Part shown: positions 2,757 to 21,087 of the stretch, one piece after another
Numbering within the stretch: the first letter of the stretch is position 1
How the letters are laid out: each line of letters begins with the position of its first letter
NCBI GenBank assembly: GCA_947632355.1
Contig: CANROY010000003.1
Coordinates: forward strand, 5,646-37,645
Length of the DNA stretch: 32,000 nt
Direction: 5' to 3'
Origin: an uncultured Bacilli bacterium
GTDB taxonomy: Bacteria; Bacillota_I; Bacilli_A; RF39; UBA660
Made by a program: the position numbers and the translations under genes
The notes under the pieces: generated by a model
Seen by the model: only the letters and a program-made list of their open reading frames with translations
Databases searched by the model: none
What the model was told of the DNA's origin: nothing

Positions 2757-2810
2757 TTTAGGTTACTCCTTTTTTAATTTTATGTTATAATAGTTTTTAA
2801 GGTGGGTAGT

Positions 2811-5363
2811 ATGAAACGTAGTGAAGTAGACAAAGAAAAATTAAGCCCTGGTATGCGTCAATATTATGATATAAAAGAAGAGTATAAAGAAGAATTATTG
2901 TTTTATCGTTTAGGGGATTTTTATGAGTTGTTTTTTGAAGATGGAGAAATCGCCTCTCGTGAACTTGAACTTACATTAACAAGTAAAAATGCTGGATTAG
3001 AAGAAAGAGTACCAATGTGTGGTGTTCCTTTTCATTCTGTAAAACCCTATATTGAGAAATTAGTAAATAAAGGCTATAAAGTGGCGATTTGTGAACAGCT
3101 AGAAGACCCCAAAAATGCTAAAGGAATGGTAAAACGTGGAGTTGTCGAGGTCATCAGTAAAGGTTCTATTGTGGATTCTGACCTTTTAAATGAACACGAC
3201 CACAACTATATTGCGAGTGTTCTAGATTTTTCATTCACCTATGTTTTATGTTACGCTGATATCTCAACTGGTACTCTAAACGTTATGAACGTACAACACA
3301 ACAAAGAAAAATTATTAAATGAGATTCTAAATTTAAAAATCAAAGAAGTGTTATTAAAAGACAATACGGACGTGGAACTCATTAGTACATTAAAAGGCAA
3401 TTATGGAATTGAAGTCTCTATTTCAGATGGATTTTTAGAAGAAGGAATTGAAAAATTACTAAACACAGTAGAAGATATTCGTTTTAAAGAAGGAATTAAA
3501 CATATTCTTTACTATTTAATTGTTCGAGAACTAAAAAGTATCGACCACATTAAGAGTGTGAATGTCATTAATAGCGATGATTATTTAGAGATGGATGTTC
3601 ATACCATTCGTAATTTAGAGTTAGTAGAAACCTTACGTTTAAAAGAAAGAATGTATTCTTTACTATGGCTTTTAGATAAAACAAAAACCTCTATGGGAAG
3701 TCGTAAGTTAAAAGAGTATTTAATTCATCCTTTAAAAGATAAAAAACGTATTGAAGAACGTTTCGATAAAATAACGGTTTTAAATAATGAATTTATTTTA
3801 AAAGACCGCCTAAGAGATGCACTGTACGAAGTCTATGACATAGAACGACTTTGTGGAAAAGTAGCGTGTGGTTCTTTAAACGCTAGAGATTTATTACAAC
3901 TAAAAAATAGTTTAAAAGTCTTACCAACAATAAAAGAAATTGTTTCAGAATTAAAGTTTGATTATGAAATCAATACCCATAACGAACTTTATGAGTTACT
4001 GGAAAGAGGAATTTATGAAGAACCTCCTGTTACCTTAAAAGAAGGTTATTTAATTAAAGAAGGGTATAACGAAGAATTAGATGAACTAAAAAGTATTCGT
4101 AGTGGTGGTAAAAACTTTATTGCAGAGTTTGAAAATAAATTAAAAGAAAGTACCGGAATTAAAAATTTGAAAGTAGGATACACAAGAGTATTTGGTTATT
4201 TCATTGAAGTGAGTAAAGGACAAGTAAAAGAAATTAGTCCGGATTTAAATTGGGAAAGAAGACAAACTCTTGCTAATGCCGAGCGATTTATTTCTCCAGA
4301 ACTAAAAGAAAAAGAAGCCCTTATCTTAAACGCCGAAGAAAAAATCATTGAACTTGAATACAATTTATTTAATGAGATAAAAGAGCAAGTAAAACAAGTT
4401 TTAATTTCTTTAAAAGATACAGCAGAAATCTTAAGCGAACTAGATGCTTTAGCAAGTTTAGCGGTTTGTGCAGAAGAATATGGTTTTGTAAGACCTACGT
4501 TAAATGAAAATCATACGATTGATATCAAAGATGGTTTTCATCCGGTTATTATGAAAGTCAGTAGTGAAGCATTTGTTCCCAATGATTGTTGCATGAATGA
4601 ACAAATTAGTACTCTTTTAATAACAGGACCAAATATGAGTGGTAAATCAACCTATATGAGACAACTCGCCATTATTGTGATTATGGCCCAAATGGGTTCT
4701 TTTGTTCCAGCAAAAAGTGCAAATTTACCGATTATTGATAAAATATTTACACGAATCGGAGCAAGTGATGACTTAGTAAGTGGAGAATCGACGTTTATGG
4801 TGGAAATGAATGAAGCCAAGAATGCTTTAGTAAATGCAACTGAAAATAGTCTAGTCTTATTTGATGAACTCGGTCGTGGTACAGCAACATATGATGGTAT
4901 GAGTCTTGCCTATGCTATACTTGAATATGTCAATGAACATATAAAATGTAAGACGCTTTTTTCAACCCATTATCACGAACTAACAGCTTTAGAAAGAGAA
5001 ATACCAAGTATTAAAAATATTCACGTATCAGCATATGAAGAAGATGGTAAAATTACGTTCTTACATAAAATTAAAAATGGTGCCGTTGATAAAAGTTATG
5101 GAATTCACGTAGCCAAACTTGCTGGAATGCCAAAAGAAGTAACAGATAGAGCAACAACTATTCTAGCATCTTACGAGCAAAAAAAGGAAAAAAATAGTAG
5201 CAATGATAAAGTGCAACTCTCTATGCAATTTGAAGAACCAAAACAAGAAGATCCGATTCAAAAATTCTTAAATGGTGTAGACCCTGTTTATATGACCCCT
5301 ATTGAAGCCATCAATACTTTATACGAATTAAAGAAATTAATGAGTGATAGTAAAAAAATGTAA
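2811..5363 (+). CDS. mutS: DNA mismatch repair protein MutS
   Basis: Domain I carries GDFYELFFEDG. The Walker A motif is TGPNMSGKST, and DELGRGT and STHYHEL are present. ATG 2811 follows the SD AAGGTGG (2799-2805). A TGtTATAAT extended -10 lies at 2783-2791. Confidence 0.97.
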   Translation: MKRSEVDKEKLSPGMRQYYDIKEEYKEELLFYRLGDFYELFFEDGEIASRELELTLTSKNAGLEERVPMCGVPFHSVKPYIEKLVNKGYKVAICEQLEDPKNAKGMVKRGVVEVISKGSIVDSDLLNEHDHNYIASVLDFSFTYVLCYADISTGTLNVMNVQHNKEKLLNEILNLKIKEVLLKDNTDVELISTLKGNYGIEVSISDGFLEEGIEKLLNTVEDIRFKEGIKHILYYLIVRELKSIDHIKSVNVINSDDYLEMDVHTIRNLELVETLRLKERMYSLLWLLDKTKTSMGSRKLKEYLIHPLKDKKRIEERFDKITVLNNEFILKDRLRDALYEVYDIERLCGKVACGSLNARDLLQLKNSLKVLPTIKEIVSELKFDYEINTHNELYELLERGIYEEPPVTLKEGYLIKEGYNEELDELKSIRSGGKNFIAEFENKLKESTGIKNLKVGYTRVFGYFIEVSKGQVKEISPDLNWERRQTLANAERFISPELKEKEALILNAEEKIIELEYNLFNEIKEQVKQVLISLKDTAEILSELDALASLAVCAEEYGFVRPTLNENHTIDIKDGFHPVIMKVSSEAFVPNDCCMNEQISTLLITGPNMSGKSTYMRQLAIIVIMAQMGSFVPAKSANLPIIDKIFTRIGASDDLVSGESTFMVEMNEAKNALVNATENSLVLFDELGRGTATYDGMSLAYAILEYVNEHIKCKTLFSTHYHELTALEREIPSIKNIHVSAYEEDGKITFLHKIKNGAVDKSYGIHVAKLAGMPKEVTDRATTILASYEQKKEKNSSNDKVQLSMQFEEPKQEDPIQKFLNGVDPVYMTPIEAINTLYELKKLMSDSKKM

Positions 5364-13614: not shown

Positions 13615-14374
13615 ATGGAAAATAAATCCCTTTACGTATTTTATTTTTCTTAGTTTTTTACTGACTGGCTATATTAAAAATATTCTTCTTATCTTTCTAA
13701 TTCTTTGTATTCACGAACTAGGACATATTTTTTTCTTAAAACGTTTTTCCTATCCCATTGTCCGTGTTGAGATATTTCCTTTCGGAGGCATTACAACGAC
13801 TGAAAAACCAATCAATACTCCCATTAATCAAGATATTTGCATTTATTTGGGAGGGGTTCTTTTTCAAGGTATTCTATTTTTTCTTTTTTCTTTTTTGTAT
13901 CAAAATGGTTTTCTATACGAAAATACATACCATTTATTTTTAAAATACAATAGGAGTATTCTATGTTTTAATTTACTTCCTATAAAACCTTTAGATGGGG
14001 GAGAAATTATGGAACTCCTATTTGAAAAATTTTTTCCCTATACCAAGTCTTTTTCTTTAAGTATTACTGTATCGTTTTTCTTTTTACTTATATTCCTTCT
14101 TTATAATATAAAATGTAATTTAAATGGCTATATCGTGATTAGTTTTTTACTCTATAAAATACTAGATTTTACCAAAAAGAAAGAGCATTATAAAAATAAG
14201 TTTTATTTAGAACGGTATTTGTATACATTTCCTTATAAAAAAATTGAGCATCATGAAGTACAAGATATCACGCTTTTAAAGAAAGAAACCTTACATTTTT
14301 TTAAAGAAAACCAAAAATATCGTCATGAAAAAGAAATTTTGCAGGAAAAATTTGACATTCATACCTATTTTTGA
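13577..14374 (+). CDS. spoIVFB: Site-2 metalloprotease (M50), SpoIVFB-like
   Basis: The HELGH motif (CIHELGHIFF) and NLLPIKPLDGG motif lie in a polytopic membrane protein. The start is uncertain among 13577, 13595 and 13598. Confidence 0.8.
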   Translation: MVLIRVMMAIFHKWKINPFTYFIFLSFLLTGYIKNILLIFLILCIHELGHIFFLKRFSYPIVRVEIFPFGGITTTEKPINTPINQDICIYLGGVLFQGILFFLFSFLYQNGFLYENTYHLFLKYNRSILCFNLLPIKPLDGGEIMELLFEKFFPYTKSFSLSITVSFFFLLIFLLYNIKCNLNGYIVISFLLYKILDFTKKKEHYKNKFYLERYLYTFPYKKIEHHEVQDITLLKKETLHFFKENQKYRHEKEILQEKFDIHTYF

Positions 14375-14380
14375 TAAAAT
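14352..14380 (+). promoter_or_regulatory. Sigma-A promoter of the rplU-prp-rpmA operon
   Basis: TTGACA (14352-14357), a 17-nt spacer, then TGaTAAAAT (extended -10, 14372-14380). Confidence 0.55.
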
Positions 14381-14470
14381 TTAATACGTTTGAAAGGGCT
14401 TTCCTTTCTAAACCACATGGAAGAGGTTTTAAAAACTAAGTTTGCCTTTACAGTGAGTCTTAAATATAAA
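14381..14470 (+). promoter_or_regulatory. Possible ribosomal protein L21 leader RNA
   Basis: This is a structured ~90-nt 5' UTR upstream of rplU. One hairpin pairs GAAAGG (14392-14397) with CCTTTC (14403-14408), and a second pairs AAACC with GGTTT. L21 leaders are known at this position in Firmicutes, but no covariance search could be run. Confidence 0.3.
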
Positions 14471-14481
14471 GGAGGTAAGAA

Positions 14482-14784
14482 ATGAAAGCAATATTTGTTA
14501 CAGGTGGAAAACAATATTATGTAGCAGAAGGTGACGTTCTTTACGTTGAAAAATTACCAAACGAAGTTGGTAGTGAAGTAACTTTTACAGATGTTTTATT
14601 TGCCAATGGTGTTGCAGGTGATCCTTATGTAAAAGGTGCTAAAGTGGTTTGTACAGTAGAAAAACACGGAAAACAAAAGAAAATTATTATTTTCAAGTAT
14701 AGACCAAAAAAGAAATCTCGTAAAAAACAAGGTCATAGACAACCTTATACAAAACTTGTCGTTAAAAAAATAGAAGTTAAATAA
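14482..14784 (+). CDS. rplU: 50S ribosomal protein L21
   Basis: [25 protein letters not shown] and the basic C-terminus fit L21. The SD is AAGGAGG. Confidence 0.97.
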
Positions 14785-14786
14785 GT

Positions 14787-15098
14787 ATGATAAAAGTATG
14801 TATAGTAAAAAGAAATAGTAGCATCGAAAAAATTCAAATAAAAGGTCATGCCGGTTATGCAGAATATGGATACGATATTGTTTGTAGTGCCGTATCAAGT
14901 GTTGTTACAACAACGATTAATGCTCTATATGCATTTGAAGAATCCATTGAAGTTTTTGATAAAGAAACTTTAGAAATAGTAGTAAAAAAACACGATAACA
15001 TAACGGATACTTTACTTGAAAATATGATTGCTATGTTAAAAGGAATTGAAAATCAATATAAAGAAAATATAAGAATGGAGGAGAAAAACGAATGTTAA
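14787..15098 (+). CDS. prp: Ribosomal-processing cysteine protease Prp (YsxB)
   Basis: [18 protein letters not shown] is the catalytic His/Cys region. The gene lies between rplU and rpmA. Confidence 0.9.
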
Positions 15099-15376
15099 GA
15101 TTTGCGTTTAATTTACAACGTTTTGCTCACATTAAAGCTCAAGGTTCTACTAAAAACGGCCGTGATAGTGCTGGTAGAAGACTAGGTGCTAAAGCAAGTG
15201 ATGGAGAATTTGTTAGTGCTGGTTCTATTCTATATCGTCAAAGAGGTACAAAAATTTATCCAGGAACAAACGTTGGAATGGGAAAAGATCACACTTTATT
15301 TGCAAAAATAGATGGTCTTGTTAAATTCGAAAGATTAGGAAGAGATAAAAAGAAAGTAAGCGTTTACGAAAAGTAA
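15092..15376 (+). CDS. rpmA: 50S ribosomal protein L27 with a Prp-cleaved N-terminal extension
   Basis: [12 protein letters not shown] is followed by [20 protein letters not shown]. This is the Firmicutes-type propeptide plus the conserved L27 core. Confidence 0.97.
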
Positions 15377-15386
15377 GCGTTTTTTT
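15361..15386 (+). terminator. Rho-independent terminator of the rplU operon
   Basis: Stem CGTTTAC (15361-15367) pairs with GTAAGCG (15373-15379), including one G-U pair. The loop is GAAAA and a T7 run follows. The hairpin overlaps the rpmA stop codon. Confidence 0.6.
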
Positions 15387-15409
15387 ATCTTTTTTTTCTA
15401 AAAACTTTG

Positions 15410-15418
15410 TGGTAAAAT
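15410..15418 (+). promoter_or_regulatory. Extended -10 promoter element upstream of the DGR target gene
   Basis: The element is TGgTAAAAT, with no clear -35. It lies 27 nt upstream of ATG 15445. Confidence 0.35.
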
Positions 15419-15475
15419 GAATTTAAGATAAGGAGAGATAAAAAATGAAGAATTTAAGAAATACTCTCCCAACCA

Positions 15476-17473
15476 TTGAAAATCGTCCAATGGGGGGGGG
15501 GTATATTAGAAAGTAATAAAAAAAAGAACCCCAAAAGACGACTCGAAATAATGATTAGTTTGTTAAGTATTGCAGTACTTATTACAGTAGTGTCTTTTAG
15601 TTATGCTTACATAAAAACAAATAAAGAAGAAAAGGATGTCAATGTACTAGGAACTGAGTGTATCAATCTTGAAATGGAAGACTTAAGTAAAGGAATAACT
15701 TTACAACATACATTTCCAGTAAGTGATGCAACAGGAAAATCATCAACACCTTATACATTTAAATTAACCAATGAATGCGGAGTAGGAGTGGATTATGAAA
15801 TTCACTTAAGAGTAGAGGATGTTGAGGAAGGGCAAAAGAAAATAGCTGCAAAGAACATTGCAACTATGATTGATAGTAATGAAAAAGTAGTATTAACGAG
15901 TGAAAAAAAAGTAATCAATGAAGAAGAATCAGATAAAGAAGAATATAAGATTAGTAGTGAAAAATTAACATTAGAGGCTTATCAAGAAATAGAACATGAA
16001 GTAAGAATATGGTTAGATGAGAGTGCAGGAAATGATAGTCAAAATGGTATATTCAAAAGTAAAATCGTGATAGAAGCAATTCAAAATCAAACCGCTTCTA
16101 TTTATAAAGAAACAATTCTACACGGTGCAGATCCGGTGTTGAATAATGAAGAAGAACCAATTGCGATGTTAACAGCAAATGAAGTAGCTGAAGCTCCAAC
16201 AACAACAGATCAATTAATACCTGTCACAATAGATGAAACAACAGGAGAAGTAAAAAGAGCTGATTTATATACGGAATGGTATGATTATGAGACCAAGAAA
16301 TGGGCGAATGCAGTTATCTTAGTCGATAATAATAAAGCAAATGAAATACAACCAGGACAAACGATACAAGAAAATGATATTGAAAGTTATTTTGTATGGA
16401 TACCAAAATATAGTTATAAGTTATTTGATATGGGAAATACGGAAACAACAGTTACAAATGTTGCTAAAAAAGAAAAGCCAATCGAAATTCGTTTTGGAAC
16501 AACAAATACAAGTGATAGTGTAAGTGATGAATGTAAAACACCAACAACATCAGGAGAGATTGGAACTTGTCAAGTGGGTGATTGGATGACGCATCCAGCA
16601 TTCTTAGCATTTGATGCAGATGGGTTATGGGTTGGTAAGTTTGAAACGGGTTACGAAGGTGCTGATAGTACAGCAAATGCAAATAAAAATGAAGTATCTC
16701 CTAACAAAGTAATCATAAAACCAAATGTTTATAGTTGGAGAAATATAACCGTAGGAAACGCATTTAAAACAGCAAAAAACTATGAACCAACTTTACAAAG
16801 TCATATGATGAAGAACACCGAATGGGGAGCTGTTGCCTATTTATCTCATAGTATTTATGGAACATGTGATGGTAGTTCTTGTACTGAAATAAGGATAAAT
16901 AACAGTAGTAGTTATTTAACAGGGGTAAGTGCAAAAACTGTACCTGATTCTGGTTGGAATCAATATAATGGATATGCAGTAACAACTCCAAACACGGAAA
17001 ATGACAAATCTTATGTTTATCCAAAGAGTCAAAAATCGAGTACAACTTTTAATAACACCGGAATCTTTGATATGAGTGGAGGTTCTTGGGAGTATGTTAT
17101 GGGTTATATGAGTGGTAATGTTGGAAGTAGTGGATTAACAGAAGAAACTGATTTAACAGAAGCAAATTCTAAATATTTTGATAAATATGAAAATAAAACT
17201 GATACGGAATGGAGTAAAAGAATCTTAGGCGATGCAACAGGAGAATTAGAGCCATTTGGAATGAAGCAATACAATACAAGTAATAATAGAATTAATTCAT
17301 GGTACGAGGATTGGGCGTGGTTTCCTAACTCTAGTTTACCGTGGTTCAAACGTGGTGGCGCTCGCTATGACGGTGTTACGGCTGGTGTGTTCGCGTTCAG
17401 TCGTCACACGGGTGCTGTCGATGGCAGCGACAGTTTTCGCCTCGTTTGTGCTCCAACGCACGCGAGTGCGTAA
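15476..17473 (+). CDS. DGR target (variable) protein: N-terminal signal-anchor and C-terminal C-type-lectin/FGE-like fold carrying the VR
   Basis: This is the long ORF in the track, but TTG 15476 has no SD. The only good SD/ATG (AAGGAGAG, then ATG 15445) is one frame off and joins this frame only if the G10 tract (15492-15501) has 9 or 12 G. A basic stretch plus TM helix (KKKNPKRRLEIMISLLSIAVLITVVSF) is present. The FGE-like segment reads HMMKNTEWGAVAYL. The C-terminus WFKRGGARYDGVTAGVFAFSRHTGAVDGSDSFRLVCAP is the VR. Confidence 0.85.
   Translation: MKIVQWGGGILESNKKKNPKRRLEIMISLLSIAVLITVVSFSYAYIKTNKEEKDVNVLGTECINLEMEDLSKGITLQHTFPVSDATGKSSTPYTFKLTNECGVGVDYEIHLRVEDVEEGQKKIAAKNIATMIDSNEKVVLTSEKKVINEEESDKEEYKISSEKLTLEAYQEIEHEVRIWLDESAGNDSQNGIFKSKIVIEAIQNQTASIYKETILHGADPVLNNEEEPIAMLTANEVAEAPTTTDQLIPVTIDETTGEVKRADLYTEWYDYETKKWANAVILVDNNKANEIQPGQTIQENDIESYFVWIPKYSYKLFDMGNTETTVTNVAKKEKPIEIRFGTTNTSDSVSDECKTPTTSGEIGTCQVGDWMTHPAFLAFDADGLWVGKFETGYEGADSTANANKNEVSPNKVIIKPNVYSWRNITVGNAFKTAKNYEPTLQSHMMKNTEWGAVAYLSHSIYGTCDGSSCTEIRINNSSSYLTGVSAKTVPDSGWNQYNGYAVTTPNTENDKSYVYPKSQKSSTTFNNTGIFDMSGGSWEYVMGYMSGNVGSSGLTEETDLTEANSKYFDKYENKTDTEWSKRILGDATGELEPFGMKQYNTSNNRINSWYEDWAWFPNSSLPWFKRGGARYDGVTAGVFAFSRHTGAVDGSDSFRLVCAPTHASA
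15492..15501 (+). repeat. G10 homopolymer at the 5' end of the DGR target gene; candidate slipped-strand phase-variation tract
   Basis: Ten consecutive G occur in a strongly AT-rich genome. The tract sits exactly between the SD-preceded ATG 15445 and the main ORF frame. Confidence 0.6.
17321..17455 (+). repeat. DGR variable repeat (VR)
   Basis: The VR aligns over 135 bp with 17649-17783 at an offset of 328. The 11 mismatches are at 17336, 17337, 17360, 17361, 17364, 17366, 17400, 17405, 17420, 17427 and 17429. All correspond to A in the TR. Confidence 0.95.
17456..17471 (+). promoter_or_regulatory. GC-rich hairpin directly abutting the VR 3' end; candidate DGR target-recognition element
   Basis: ACGCAC (17456-17461), loop GCGA, then GTGCGT (17466-17471). 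The hairpin overlaps the stop codon (17471-17473) and is absent downstream of the TR. Confidence 0.6.
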
Positions 17474-17540
17474 CTGTGTACTTTCGTATGATAATTGGAA
17501 CAGTTAATTTGTATAATTTTCGTAATACAAATTGTTATTG

Positions 17541-17578
17541 TTCGCCCAATTCCTATCTTGTTTAAGGAATTGGGCGAA
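17541..17578 (+). other. Perfect 13-bp stem-loop between VR and TR
   Basis: TTCGCCCAATTCC (17541-17553), a 12-nt loop, then GGAATTGGGCGAA (17566-17578). No U tract follows immediately. Confidence 0.6.
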
Positions 17579-17648
17579 TAGAAAAATTTTTGGTCTTAAT
17601 AGTTTATATAGATTAAGACAGGGATTAGATTGTAATAGAACGTTTGAG

Positions 17649-17783
17649 TTTCCTAACTCTAGTAAACCGTGGTTCAAACGTGGTGGCAATCACAATGACG
17701 GTGTTACGGCTGGTGTGTTCGCGTTCAATCGTAACACGGGTGCTGTCAATGGCAACAACAGTTTTCGCCTCGTTTGTGCTCCA
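17649..17783 (+). repeat. DGR template repeat (TR)
   Basis: The TR is noncoding. In the VR frame it reads FPNSSKPWFKRGGNHNDGVTAGVFAFNRNTGAVNGNNSFRLVCAP and contains 8 AAY codons. By my count it has 29 adenines, 11 of which are substituted in the VR. The last 22 nt before the terminal CCA contain no A. Confidence 0.95.
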
Positions 17784-17960
17784 GACTATGGTATAAAAAA
17801 GAAAATCCACGCAAACATTTCTTTTCATTTCAAAATAAAGTTCATGGACTTTATGAATATGTTTGCCATAGAAATCTAATTCCTTTTTGGCTAAAACCAA
17901 ATAAACACATGAACAGTATGGTTATGGCAAGTAGTAAAATGGCGAAAGTCATTCCATACG

Positions 17961-17989
17961 AAAACTACCATTTATTGTTGGTAGTTTTT
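17961..17989 (+). terminator. Terminator-like hairpin closing the TR-spacer module
   Basis: AAAACTACCA (17961-17970), an 8-nt loop, then TGGTAGTTTT (17979-17988), followed by a T. Confidence 0.45.
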
Positions 17990-18005
17990 GGAAGGAAAGG
18001 TATTT

Positions 18006-18194
18006 ATGGAAATAAATTTAAAAGAAATAAGAAAATCTTGTGGATTTACGCAAGAAGAACTGGCAAAAAAACTAGGGGTAACCCAACAACAATATTCAAG
18101 GTATGAAACCAAAACAAATAAAATAACATTAGAAATGTTTTTAAAAATAATAAAAGTATGTAAATTAGAGATAAAAATAGAAAAAAATAAGTAA
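18006..18194 (+). CDS. XRE-family helix-turn-helix protein inside the DGR cassette
   Basis: MEINLKEIRKSCGFTQEELAKKLGVTQQQYSRYE is the classic HTH_3 pattern. The SD is GGAAGGAAAGG (17991-18000). ATG 18006 is preferred over the TTG 17988 start in the track. Confidence 0.8.
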   Translation: MEINLKEIRKSCGFTQEELAKKLGVTQQQYSRYETKTNKITLEMFLKIIKVCKLEIKIEKNK

Positions 18195-18209
18195 TAGAAG
18201 TATTCAAAG

Positions 18210-18236
18210 AAGTTTTGTTAGTAGCAAAACTTTTTT
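18210..18236 (+). terminator. Rho-independent terminator after the HTH gene
   Basis: AAGTTTTG (18210-18217), loop TTAGTAG, then CAAAACTT (18225-18232), followed by TTTT. Confidence 0.55.
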
Positions 18237-18399
18237 CGTGCACGTAATTATGCACAATTTGTCTAAAAATGCTTTTAATTTGTTTTTTTGCCTTAAAAAT
18301 GTATTTTAGTTCTAAATAATAAACTTTTAAACGAAAAATAACCTATTTTAAGTAAAAAATAGATATAATTTCTATAGAATAAAAAGGAAGTATTGTAGT

Positions 18400-18759
18400 A
18401 TGAGTGAAATTTATAATCAATATAAAAAATTAAAAGAAGAGAATAAGAAAAAAATGTATTTATTTAAAGTTGGTAATTTTTATATTTTTTTAGATGAGGA
18501 TGCAGAAAAAATAAATGATTATGTTGTATTAAAGAAAACACCATTTTGTAAAGAAGTAATGAAATGCGGTTTTCCTGTAAATAGATTAGAAGATTATATG
18601 AAAGTTTTTCATAATCATAAGTTACCAATTTCGATAATAGAAAATGAAAAAAAGTGTGATTTGGAACAAGTTATACAACATCTTAGAAAAATAGATTTGA
18701 ATAAATTAACTCCTATAAAAGCACTAAACCTTCTATATGAAATAAAAGAGATGCTATGA
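18400..18759 (+). CDS. MutS-like (MSL) DGR accessory protein: MutS domain I-like N-terminus plus MutS C-terminal tail motif
   Basis: YLFKVGNFYIFLDEDAEKIN...MKCGFPVNRLEDYMKVF aligns with [20 protein letters not shown]...[17 protein letters not shown] of the bona fide MutS in this window. The C-terminus IDLNKLTPIKALNLLYEIKEML aligns with the MutS C-terminus VDPVYMTPIEAINTLYELKKLM. The stop overlaps the avd start (ATGA). Confidence 0.75.
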   Translation: MSEIYNQYKKLKEENKKKMYLFKVGNFYIFLDEDAEKINDYVVLKKTPFCKEVMKCGFPVNRLEDYMKVFHNHKLPISIIENEKKCDLEQVIQHLRKIDLNKLTPIKALNLLYEIKEML

Positions 18760-19115
18760 TGAAAAATGTAGAAGATTTACTTATTTATAAGCAATATATT
18801 GAACTTATTTATTATACAGAAATGATTTTGGATAAATATCCAAAAAGTGAGCGTTTTGCTATTGTTACGGCGATTAAAAATAATACTTATGATGGGATGA
18901 GAAGTTTACTAAGTGCGTATAAAGAATATCAAAAAGAAAAAAAATATCATTATTTAAATCAATTAGATACAACACTTAAAATGTTAAAAGTCATGATTCG
19001 AGTATCCTATAAACGAAAGTATATAAATGTTAAAAATTATACGGCTTGGAGCAAAAAAATAACCAATATTGGAAATTTACTTGGAGGATGGATGAAGTCG
19101 TGTCAAAGACAATAA
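18756..19115 (+). CDS. avd: DGR accessory variability determinant (Avd), four-helix-bundle family
   Basis: The 119-aa basic protein contains LIYKQYIELIYYTEMILDKYPKSERFAIVTAIKNN...GGWMK, which is typical of the Avd / 23S-IVS four-helix-bundle family. It lies immediately upstream of the RT and overlaps it. Confidence 0.85.
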   Translation: MMKNVEDLLIYKQYIELIYYTEMILDKYPKSERFAIVTAIKNNTYDGMRSLLSAYKEYQKEKKYHYLNQLDTTLKMLKVMIRVSYKRKYINVKNYTAWSKKITNIGNLLGGWMKSCQRQ

Positions 19116-20152
19116 AAAATATATTTTATAAAAAATTAACCTTTATTAAACTCATTGAAGCCCATGATAGGGCAAGAGAAGGAAAAAATACACGACCTGA
19201 AATTATTCGATTTGAAATGAATTTAGAAAGTAATATTATCAATTTACTTTATAAAATAAAAAGTAAGCAGTATAAAATTGGTAAATATCGAGAATTTTAT
19301 GTATATGAGCCGAAAGAAAGACTTATAAAATCTTTACCTTATATAGATAGAATTGTACATCAATGGTATGTAGAAGAATTTATTAAACCATTTTTTATTC
19401 CTCGCTTTATTAAAGATTCTTATGCTTGTTTAAAAGATAAAGGAGGACATAAAGCTGTTTTAAGAATGCAAGATTTTATGCGTCGTATGAAAAGAAAATA
19501 TAAAAATTATTATGTTTTAAAATGTGATATAAAAAAATATTTTTATAATATTGATAAAAACATTTTATATTCGATACTAGAAAAATCAATAACGGATAAA
19601 GAATTATTAAATTTTTCCAAAGTAATTATATTTGATAATGATGAAAAGAAAGGGATTCCTATTGGCAATTATACAAGTCAATTTTTTGCTAATATTTATT
19701 TAAATGAATTAGACCATTATGTTAAAGAAGATTTAGGACTACCTTATTACATAAGATATATGGATGATTTTATACTTCTTTTACCTACAAAAGATGATGC
19801 AAAGCAAATAAAAGAAAAAATAAAAAATTTTTTAGAACAAAATTTAAAATTAGAATTAAATGCTAAAAGTAAATATTATCCTAGTAAAATGGGTATTGAT
19901 TTTTGCGGGTATCGTATTTTTGAAACGCATTTATTAATTCGTAAAAGAAGTAAAGCAAAAATAAAAAAATTAATTAAATCGTGGAATTGTTTTTATAAAG
20001 AAGGAAATTTAAATTTAGAAAATGTGATTCAAAGATGGAATGCGTGGAGAGGACATATTTCCCACGCTAATACTTATCATTTAGAGAATAAATATTTGGA
20101 TAAAATACTTTTTAAAGAATCCTTAAAAACGAAAAAAGAAACTTCAATTTAA
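19088..20152 (+). CDS. DGR-type reverse transcriptase
   Basis: RT motifs are present: PKERLIKSLPYIDRIVHQW, LKCDIKKYFYNID, the DGR-signature IGNYTSQFFANIYLNELD, and YIRYMDDFILL (YMDD). The start is ambiguous: ATG 19088, or GTG 19100 after GGAGG at 19083-19087. The start of track ORF 19046 is unlikely. The gene overlaps the avd 3' end. Confidence 0.93.
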   Translation: MDEVVSKTIKNIFYKKLTFIKLIEAHDRAREGKNTRPEIIRFEMNLESNIINLLYKIKSKQYKIGKYREFYVYEPKERLIKSLPYIDRIVHQWYVEEFIKPFFIPRFIKDSYACLKDKGGHKAVLRMQDFMRRMKRKYKNYYVLKCDIKKYFYNIDKNILYSILEKSITDKELLNFSKVIIFDNDEKKGIPIGNYTSQFFANIYLNELDHYVKEDLGLPYYIRYMDDFILLLPTKDDAKQIKEKIKNFLEQNLKLELNAKSKYYPSKMGIDFCGYRIFETHLLIRKRSKAKIKKLIKSWNCFYKEGNLNLENVIQRWNAWRGHISHANTYHLENKYLDKILFKESLKTKKETSI

Positions 20153-21087
20153 GCAGTTTCTTTTATTTTCTCTGTATTTTTAAAATTTAATTTAGCGATT
20201 TCTTTTAGTTTTTCAATTCCGTATTTAGAAACAATTTCTTTTCCTACCGTATCAACAACAGTATTAGCCCCTTTAGGAATCTCCATATTCAATTCTTTTG
20301 ATAATTCTTCCATTCTTTTTAAAAAGAAATAACGACTGATGACACTTGCAGCAGCAACACTTGCACATTTACTTTCAGCTTTGGTCGTAAAGGTAATGTT
20401 TTCTACTTTTTCGGTTGCTTCTAAAATATGTTCAAAGTATTTTCTTGGATACACAAATTGATCCACAACAATTTTTTGATAAGGGTATTGTTCTTCTTTA
20501 TGAGTAATCGCATATAAAACTTTGTTGTGTAAAATGGCTTTTATTTTATTCATATTATAACCCATGCTTTGATATTTATTATATTCTTCATTATTTAAAG
20601 TGAGTGTAACATAAGGAATTTCTTTTAATAGAGTAGGAGCAATTTTAAGTATTTTTTCATCCGTTAATTTCTTAGAATCTTTAACACCTAGTTCGTTAAT
20701 TAAATCTATTTTTTCTTTTGCAACATAAGTTGCCGTTACAATAATAGGCCCAAAATAATCTCCTGTACCCACTTCATCCGAACCAATAGTAGACATACTA
20801 TAATAGTAGTTTAATTCTTCCTTATATTTTTCTTTTTCCTTTTTATCTTCATTAATATCAATGGTACGATTGTTTAACTTCTTTTCTAAATCTGCCCAAA
20901 TATTCGCATCAACATCTGCACTTATGCCTTGAAACATAACTTTACCACTTTCATATAAAGTGATTATGGTATCCGCTTCATCGGCTTGAAAAATAGCATA
21001 AGGAGGCGTTTTTTCTCTTTTTACATCTTTATAGTATTCAATCATTTTGGCTTTAACATTATCACTTACTTTAAATACGATTGTCAT
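20149..21087 (-). CDS. rnhC: Ribonuclease HIII
   Basis: The 312-aa protein has an N-terminal TBP-like domain and the catalytic GSDEVGTGDYFGPIIV motif. Its stop codon shares the palindrome TTAA (20149-20152) with the RT stop. Confidence 0.9.
   Translation of the reverse strand: MTIVFKVSDNVKAKMIEYYKDVKREKTPPYAIFQADEADTIITLYESGKVMFQGISADVDANIWADLEKKLNNRTIDINEDKKEKEKYKEELNYYYSMSTIGSDEVGTGDYFGPIIVTATYVAKEKIDLINELGVKDSKKLTDEKILKIAPTLLKEIPYVTLTLNNEEYNKYQSMGYNMNKIKAILHNKVLYAITHKEEQYPYQKIVVDQFVYPRKYFEHILEATEKVENITFTTKAESKCASVAAASVISRYFFLKRMEELSKELNMEIPKGANTVVDTVGKEIVSKYGIEKLKEIAKLNFKNTEKIKETA

Follow-up and report, generated by a model that had tools for sequence, protein, structure and literature searches.

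Does the short direct repeat at the 3' end of a predicted surface-protein gene in an uncultured Bacilli bacterium belong to a complete diversity-generating retroelement (DGR), and is that element likely to be working? The stretch analyzed, referred to below as the window, comprises 32,000 nt of contig CANROY010000003.1 (assembly GCA_947632355.1), and an earlier note on the same letters had read the repeat as an apparently active DGR. Everything that adjoins the repeats agrees with the DGR reading: a DGR-type reverse transcriptase (RT), the accessory variability determinant Avd, a MutS-like (MSL) gene, a target protein with a predicted C-type-lectin (CLec)/FGE fold, a hairpin behind the variable repeat (VR), and a structured RNA flanking the template repeat (TR). 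That the element is a DGR we consider close to certain; that it is a complete chromosomal DGR of the MSL-plus-Avd type, functional and working in the way proposed below, we consider probable. All of its parts lie on the forward strand, in the order target gene with its C-terminal VR, TR RNA gene, small helix-turn-helix (HTH) gene, and MSL-avd-RT (coordinates in Table 1).

The repeats themselves carry the first part of the evidence. An independent repeat search over positions 14000–21000 returned a single direct repeat, with an offset of 328 nt between its copies and 92% identity. The pair and the offset were therefore as first noted (VR 17321–17455, TR 17649–17783, 135 bp), with the correction that the start had been set one base too late, the repeat measuring 136 nt from 17320 and 17648. 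Base-by-base comparison of the two copies reproduced the 11 mismatches reported before, all 11 of them at adenines of the TR (from TR to VR, 6 A-to-G, 3 A-to-T, and 2 A-to-C). With 29 adenines among the 136 nt of the TR, the probability that all the differences would fall on adenines by chance is 7.1e-9 (hypergeometric). The mutated span runs from 17336 to 17429, and 11 of the 23 TR adenines within it are changed. The likeness between the copies breaks off sharply at both repeat ends, and the VR is free of stops and indels, with no non-A difference in 136 nt.

The changes are also of the kind expected to alter a protein. All 11 are non-synonymous, each falls on the first or second codon position in the VR frame, and our codon table agrees with the earlier count of eight AAY codons in the TR, of which seven are altered in the VR, and with the list of residue changes (from TR to VR: K to L, N to A, H to R, N to Y, N to S, N to H, N to D, N to S, and N to D). 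The description of the repeats as about half G+C in AT-rich DNA was likewise borne out (VR 55%, TR 49%, window 29%). No second VR was found in the window, as self-BLAST gave this one A-biased pair only; a 22-nt third copy of part of the repeat, at 20253 inside rnhC, shows 82% identity and was taken as chance.

The second part of the evidence comes from the proteins encoded downstream. Residues 8–332 of the RT align full length with the Bordetella phage bRT (PDB 8ub7, E 2.4e-48), the best match among PDB sequences, while group II intron and retron RTs gave far weaker matches (~1e-15). The motifs IPIGnyTSQffANiY (of the IGxxxSQ type) and YMDD are kept, and the gene was called identically in two contigs of the same species (L001 and L082). 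Avd reaches 83.3 bits against NCBIfam DivGenRetAVD (equivalog cut-off 80) and 74.9 bits against Pfam bAvd (cut-off 40, E 8e-21). To place these genes among their relatives, an RT scan of one-genome-per-species data was used, which returned 162 relatives; 80 loci, mostly of uncultured gut Bacilli and Clostridia, were kept and examined. The MSL gene lies upstream of avd in ~77 of these 80 loci, and the MSL-avd-RT trio is likewise conserved. The MSL protein retains the G-x-F-Y of the MutS mismatch-binding domain, with the Glu of F-x-E replaced by Ile (FYI) across 75 sequences in L002–L081. MSL overlaps avd by 4 nt, and avd overlaps RT by 28 nt, so that the three genes are read as one operon. The window also codes for a full-length MutS (2802–5363), with the motif GDFYE.

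In the survey of Wu et al. (NAR 2018), small MSL proteins are the fourth class of DGR accessory gene and always occur with avd; the DGRs that carry them, the Legionella element among them, form "Architecture D" and make up 16 of the 372 surveyed. The window shares with this architecture a 119-aa MutS_I gene with avd adjacent, a DGR RT, a VR at the C terminus of a CLec-type target, and an A-free, GC-rich end resembling the initiation of mutagenic homing (IMH) site, followed by an inverted repeat; no HRDC match was found among the window open reading frames (ORFs) scanned. It differs from the surveyed elements in that the TR belongs to a separate, terminated RNA upstream of MSL-avd-RT, with the HTH gene between. 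Since MSL-plus-Avd DGRs are already a published class, the window element is an added example of that class, and the finding is to this extent confirmatory. The difference in family size is nevertheless large, with 16 MSL DGRs in the survey against 162 RT relatives here and the trio in nearly all of the 80 loci examined.

The target protein is laid out as an N-terminal cytoplasmic tail, a transmembrane helix, a beta-sandwich domain, and a C-terminal domain of CLec/FGE fold. It has more than 5000 homologs. No match at threshold was found in Pfam or NCBIfam and none among PDB sequences, and the FGE-sulfatase family appeared below threshold in 11 of 43 members of the target family. The AlphaFold model, built with 43 homologs, shows an N-terminal helix (the presumed membrane anchor), the beta-sandwich, and a large, well-predicted C-terminal domain. 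As the fold search with the whole protein was swamped by the N-terminal beta-sandwich, the CLec/FGE matches were obtained with a separate AF2 model of the C-terminal domain (residues 222–640; pLDDT 93.9, pTM 0.94). With this model, Foldseek returned TaqVP of Thermus aquaticus (5vf4, E 8.8e-9), then FGE enzymes, Mtd of the Bordetella phage (1yu0), and the Treponema TvpA (2y3c), with TM-scores of ~0.4, which are modest. The predicted structure thus gives good support to the C-terminal domain being a distant member of the CLec/FGE fold. This fold is the commonest DGR scaffold. The VR codes for the last strands of the domain, with the consensus ...PWFxRGGxxxxGxxAGxFAFxxxxGxxxxxxSFR, and, given the matches to TaqVP, FGE, Mtd, and TvpA, it would therefore code for the end of a CLec/FGE-type fold. 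The variable proteins TaqVP, Mtd, and TvpA also carry the VR at the C terminus of such a fold; unlike them, the target has a larger domain (~420 aa), preceded by a transmembrane anchor and a beta-sandwich.

The recipient site can be recognized at the 3' end of the VR. The A-free, identical stretch that had been placed before the terminal CCA does have the reported length of 22 nt; its position had to be revised, as it takes in the CC of the final CCA. Directly behind the VR stands a GC-rich hairpin (−6.9 kcal/mol in a DNA fold), while the TR is without it and continues with GACTATGGTATAAAA. At the same site, 16 of the 23 loci of the window's clade have a perfect hairpin with a stem of 5 bp or more, in unrelated sequences, with loops of 3–4 nt in 15 of the 16 and a 6-nt loop in L056. 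As the other clade has none, the count for the full set of 42 loci is again 16, compared with 4.2 expected from shuffles. Judged by this recurrence, the hairpin is the putative inverted repeat that marks the recipient site. It also accords with the remark of Wu et al. (2018) on identical IMH and IMH*, which places the signal that tells them apart beyond the IMH.

The TR had been described as lying in noncoding DNA. It does not code for a protein, and yet the DNA is a conserved structured RNA gene. In an alignment of 20 related loci, ~180 nt of noncoding DNA are conserved 3' of the TR and end in a terminator-like hairpin; an equivalent hairpin with a T-run is present in the relatives, most of which have the MSL start immediately behind it. 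Over the 20 sequences, a fold with 34 base pairs shows 90% pairing, against 73% in shuffled alignments (0 of 500 reach the observed value) and 39%–48% when the strands are slid, and 26 of the pairs show compensatory changes. The same helices are given by the single-sequence minimum free energy fold of the window.

A further duplex of 12 bp connects this domain with DNA upstream of the TR. RNAalifold found no structure 5' of the TR, the input being misaligned, and the duplex came from duplex prediction, which recovered it from 90 nt of upstream DNA in 17 of 19 loci, with z-scores between −2.9 and −5.1. When the complementarity of 200 nt was searched, partners matching at 12 of 12 or 11 of 12 positions were obtained in 19 of 19 loci. 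In the resulting alignment, 99.5% of the cells are paired, against 28%–58% in slid controls, and compensatory changes affect 7 of the 12 pairs. Complementarity served to locate the 5' strand, whose conserved sequence and position argue for a homologous site. Two more stem-loops, at 17541–17578 and 17593–17619, lie between the VR and this strand, and by eye they have sequence-divergent structural counterparts in L002, L003, L009, L015, L024, and L044. They may represent the terminator of the target gene or 5' parts of the DGR RNA. As supported by the covariation of its helices, then, the TR is embedded in a predicted noncoding RNA of ~375 nt that ends in a terminator.

A covariance model of the 3' domain (R1) has one copy in the window and, in the majority of the 80 related loci, a copy adjoining the TR, its matches including a clade in which the TR and target are on the opposite strand after the RT. 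At the Rfam gathering thresholds, there were no matches in the window and none for the TR-flanking RNA in 17 relatives. In permissive mode, the window domain aligns over the full length of the RT-14 model (RF02921) with 46.1 bits (E 2.4e-5), below the gathering threshold of 48.1, which makes it a relative of RT-14 and not a member. Of the corresponding elements in relatives, the one in L017 reaches 45.3 bits, and the one in L044 matches RT-9 (RF03080). The same hairpins are shared over the full RT-14 model, while the RT-14 and RT-9 models are without the 5' strand of helix P1 and the long-range partner upstream of the TR. These motifs were described near RT genes by Weinberg et al. (2017), in whose work only RT-10 was assigned to a DGR and others were speculated to belong to DGRs.

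The arrangement of these elements can be compared with the bRT-Avd-RNA particle of the Bordetella phage. In that RNA, a TR:Sp template:primer duplex is followed, 2 nt away, by an avd:Sp duplex of 11–12 bp ("cPRT Stop"), then by a short stem-loop, unpaired adenosines engaged in A-minor contacts, and an Avd-binding stem-loop, and such elements were predicted in 207 of 278 Avd-containing DGRs; activity was not regained in Bordetella when the counterpart of the long-range duplex received compensatory changes (bioRxiv 10.1101/2023.10.23.563531). Base-pair genetics of the Bordetella DGR RNA are also available, and bRT-Avd miscopies ~50% of adenines (PMC6182149). The window RNA matches it in order and spacing, with a TR-proximal helix, a long-range duplex of ~12 bp, a short stem-loop with adenosines, and a long stem-loop. 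On this comparison, the predicted arrangement is that of a Bordetella-type DGR RNA. The BPP-1 DGR (mtd-avd-TR-brt) resembles the window also in full-length RT homology, in Avd homology, and in having about half of the adenines changed. The window element differs from it in being chromosomal, in its gene order, in its extra MSL gene, and in the identity of IMH and IMH*. Moreover, the long-range duplex takes its upstream strand from noncoding DNA in the window and from inside avd in BPP-1, and the nearest Rfam motifs are RT-14 and RT-9 instead of RT-10.

By analogy with the Bordetella phage DGR, the element would work as follows. RT and Avd would bind the TR RNA, in which the stop element would consist of the long-range duplex (17620–31 : 17873–84) together with the short stem-loop beside it and the A-rich stretch. 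Helix P1 (17786–93 : 17864–71) would place G17871, the 3' nucleotide of its downstream strand, as the cis-primer, with A17785 as the first templated base, so that cDNA synthesis would begin ~2 nt beyond the 3' end of the TR/VR homology and proceed 5' across the TR, with about half of the template adenines miscopied. The cDNA would then replace the VR, homing being steered by the A-free, GC-rich 3' end and the VR-specific hairpin, and MSL might bind the mismatched cDNA:VR heteroduplex, which is our guess. The outcome would be random variation at 9 residues at least, mostly in AAY codons, on the predicted ligand-binding face of a membrane-anchored surface protein.

Evidence for diversification comes from the relatives. 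Of the 80 loci examined, 43 yielded A-biased TR/VR pairs. The comparison of VRs across related strains, which had been suggested as a check, could be made with L076 and L077, which are 98.9% identical over 11.6 kb: Their TRs are identical (161 nt), their VRs differ at 21 positions, and all 21 are TR adenines. Between L076 and L081 (94% identical), 22 of 23 VR differences are at TR adenines, and in L003 and L009 each VR tracks its own TR at the non-A sites where the TRs differ. From the intact parts of the window copy and the diversifying relative, we infer that this copy too is probably active.

The target gene raises a question of its own. The only run of at least 6 G or C in the window is a tract of 10 G (G10) in its 5' coding region, and with G10 the frame of ATG 15445 ends at a stop at 15514. 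With G9 instead, the frame reads MKNLRNTLPTIENRPMGGGILESNKKK..., continuing MKNLRNTLPTIENRPMGGGILESNKKKNPKRR..., and aligns with the closest homolog, P0002 (MNNFKKNLPTSENRRLGGGILDNNKKKEPRR...). The 665-aa ORF first reported, with its start at TTG 15476, is for this reason an artefact of the frameshift, the true start being ATG 15445. Calls in the downstream frame were thus 15476–17473 in the earlier note and from ATG 15551 at NCBI.

Such tracts recur among the relatives. At the same site in homologous genes, the tract is G9 and in frame in L085 (5048–5056), L089 (3545–3553), and L086 (3690–3698), and G10 and out of frame, as in the window, in L087 (3517–3526), L088 (3517–3526), and L090 (3409–3418). 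L085, L087, and L090 are three paralogs of one assembly (GCA_947631035.1), in which both tract states are therefore present. G9 or G10 tracts also occur upstream of related target operons, in promoter spacers (TTGACA...TATACT/TAGAAT/TATAAT) or in a short leader ORF. In L040, L018, L021, and L079 the tract lies between the −35 and −10 boxes, and L018 and L021 share the promoter and differ in the tract, G9 against G10.

The simplest alternative is that G10 is a sequencing or assembly error in homopolymer length, the target being intact and no phase variation taking place. Homopolymer lengths are error-prone, and one base fewer restores the frame. Against this, four independent assemblies show G10 and three show G9, with both states among the three paralogs of one assembly. 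In addition, genomes of 29% GC keep the G runs at ~45%–55% protein identity, tracts stand in the promoter spacers just described, and seven tracts of at least 9 were counted in 732 kb of ~30%-GC DNA against ~0.2 expected by our estimate. We therefore regard an error as rather unlikely. The behavior of the tract is that of a putative phase-variable gene, with G10 shifting the frame and G9 restoring it, and makes it a candidate slipped-strand phase-variation switch of the target. As in the contingency loci of Campylobacter, Neisseria, and Haemophilus, the length of a 5' coding G tract sets the frame, tracts occur in promoter spacers, and paralogs are in different states; the differences in tract length seen here are between loci and between genomes.

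Tentatively, and at somewhat less than even chances, the target would thus belong to a multi-copy family of lectin-fold surface proteins in uncultured gut Bacilli, each copy being gated by poly-G (G9 on, G10 off, or a promoter spacer), which would add stochastic on/off expression to the DGR hypervariation of the ligand-binding tip. Full-text search gave no paper tying poly-G or homopolymeric switching to DGR targets, apart from an incidental co-mention, and no paper was found on such a two-layer contingency system for DGR targets. The target paralogs of GCA_947631035.1 (L085, L087, and L090; contigs CANRJW010000007, CANRJW010000004, and CANRJW010000024) are dispersed in housekeeping contexts, and a GC-rich, VR-like C-terminal coding region is present in some of them only. 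That they might be trans targets of one TR was rejected, as their C-terminal regions differ at all base types.

Several points weigh against a working element in the window. As assembled, the target is out of frame at G10, and this cell line may therefore fail to produce the diversified protein. It was not possible to find a promoter for the TR RNA with confidence, since a consensus scan gave no more sites than in shuffled sequence. No VR of the same species was found: The contigs reached by exact-protein look-ups of Avd, MSL, and L27 (L001, L082, L083, and L084), which are 99.2%–100% identical to the window (98.8% for L084), do not cover the VR, exact-pattern scans of JGI metagenome contigs were empty, the species being rare in collections, and the target protein has no record elsewhere. 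The choice of G17871 as primer is pure analogy. Finally, an IMH identical to IMH* leaves the discrimination to sites further downstream (Wu et al. 2018), and we assume that donor and recipient are told apart here by downstream sequence.

These points could be taken to mean that the DGR is real and inactive, the 11 differences being old and fixed and the frameshifted target a sign of a decaying locus. That the searches gave no further VR of the species, and that the same-species contig L084 is without the whole cassette after rpmA, would fit such a relic. However, the RT is full-length with its catalytic motifs, Avd scores above its equivalog cut-off, and the RNA helices of the window have almost no mispairs. 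A relic would gather ordinary mutations, and the VR has no stop, no indel, and no non-A difference in 136 nt. The G9/G10 toggling of a conserved tract among intact paralogs is likewise typical of reversible switching and not of decay. An inactive locus is thus an improbable explanation. An ordinary segmental duplication or gene conversion without reverse transcription, its differences due to chance or mutation bias, has in its favor only that a repeat exists and can be dismissed for practical purposes, given an all-A pattern (P 7e-9) of changes that are all non-synonymous and concentrated in AAY codons, the DGR-type RT, Avd, and conserved TR-flanking RNA that adjoin the repeats, and the same pattern in 43 related loci. 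A complete MSL-plus-Avd DGR, which is probably functional, remains the reading that we prefer.

Table 1. Features of the DGR locus in the window, with related stretches in other loci where a locus is named.
Feature	Position	Strand	Remarks
DGR target gene	15445..17473	+	ATG 15445 behind strong ribosome-binding site AAGGAG; +1 frameshift at G10 as assembled
Poly-G tract (G10)	15492..15501	+	5' coding region of target; sets the gene out of frame
Variable repeat (VR)	17320..17455	+	Last 45 codons of target except a 5-codon tail
IMH-like VR 3' end	17433..17455	+	A-free 17433–17454, 55% G+C, identical to TR, 3' of the last A-to-N change (17429)
GC-rich hairpin ACGCAC-GCGA-GTGCGT	17456..17471	+	Directly 3' of VR; overlaps stop codon
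14-bp stem-loop between VR and TR	17541..17578	+	Terminator-like, z −6.5; structural likes in L002, L003, L024, L044
8-bp hairpin GTCTTAAT/ATTAAGAC	17593..17619	+	Directly 5' of long-range strand; covarying in relatives (by eye)
Long-range duplex, 5' strand AGGGATTAGATT	17620..17631	+	16 nt before TR; closes TR into a loop
Template repeat (TR)	17648..17783	+	Repeat search and base-by-base comparison
Structured RNA domain 3' of TR ("Sp"-like)	17784..17959	+	Covariation; sub-threshold RT-14
Helix P1	17786–17793 : 17864–17871	+	Template:primer analog; begins 2 nt past VR/TR homology
Hairpin in 3' RNA domain	17835–41 / 17848–54	+	
Long-range duplex, 3' strand AATCTAATTCCT	17873–17884	+	One unpaired base after P1
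Helix P2 (short stem-loop)	17886–90 / 17897–901	+	Followed by A-rich stretch with invariant adenines
Long stem-loop P3	17916–17959	+	Candidate Avd-binding stem-loop
Intrinsic-terminator-like hairpin ending TR RNA	17959..17995	+	−15.9 kcal/mol, z −5.2
XRE-type HTH protein, 62 aa	18006..18194	+	Pfam HTH_3, E 9e-17
MSL, 119 aa	18400..18759	+	MutS domain I only; Pfam MutS_I, E 1e-11
Avd (accessory variability determinant)	18756..19115	+	Pfam bAvd, NCBIfam DivGenRetAVD
DGR reverse transcriptase, 354 aa	19088..20152	+	Start overlaps avd by 28 nt
Strain-pair VR/TR stretch	L076 7110–7617; L077 7157–7664		
G tracts upstream of target operons	L040 116–124; L018 856–864; L021 287–296; L079 2909–2918; L057 2620–2629; L004 10707–10715		

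The HTH gene, which has its own terminator-like hairpin (~18206–18237), may encode a regulator and is a candidate for this role. Homologous 60-aa HTH genes lie directly 3' of target paralogs in L085 (6974–7156), L089 (5402–5584), and L090 (5282–5464), and the window gene is for this reason not a foreign insertion. The pairing of target and HTH occurs even without a nearby RT; in the window, the TR RNA gene sits between the two.

The whole element is set among housekeeping genes, with rplU, ysxB, and rpmA on its upstream side and, downstream, the convergent gene for RNase HIII followed by CvpA and thioredoxin. A phage origin was rejected on account of these flanks and because a scan of viral contigs found no relative of the RT. 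In the contig L084 (840–2951, compared with the window from 15387 onward), the sequence is 98.8% identical across rplU-rpmA and diverges 10 nt past the rpmA stop, beyond which a coiled-coil membrane protein and a signal peptidase stand where the window has the DGR target. Either the cassette varies among strains, or a rearrangement has taken place here. The RNase HIII gene (20149–21087, reverse strand) runs toward the RT gene, and the two share 4 nt at the RT stop. L002, the closest related DGR, has the same neighbor (2854–3783, protein 89% identical), and the other relatives are without it. The association is probably one of conserved chromosomal context only.

Among the relatives, tandem arrays of TR-plus-RNA units were observed beside one RT, with ~13 units in L013 (3047–8461), 9 in L010 (2590–5743), 5 in L019 (3329–5158), and 4 in L029 (3464–5147), and two copies each in L006, L007, L008, L012, and L014. 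Every unit consists of a distinct noncoding TR-like segment (...PWFxRGGxxxxGTGxGVFxFNNxNGxANGNxSFRV...) and its own copy of the RNA domain, and among the units there are differences at positions of the AAY type and elsewhere. Arrays with several TRs are absent from the survey of Wu et al., and our literature search turned up no account of them.

The window therefore offers a clean reference locus for a very large and poorly studied family of DGRs in gut Bacilli and Clostridia, and sequence alone was enough to work out the proposed mechanism of the window element in uncommon detail. Covariation shows that the RNA elements seen by cryo-EM in Bordetella are kept in an MSL-type DGR of Gram-positive bacteria, and an orphan type of Rfam motif (RT-14/RT-9-like) is tied to the 3' flank of the TR. 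The compact RNA-MSL-Avd-RT system is well suited to probing the role of the MutS-like protein. The TR arrays and the poly-G switch add to the interest of the locus beyond the DGR itself, and the switch, if true, would join two classical ways of surface-protein variation in one gene.

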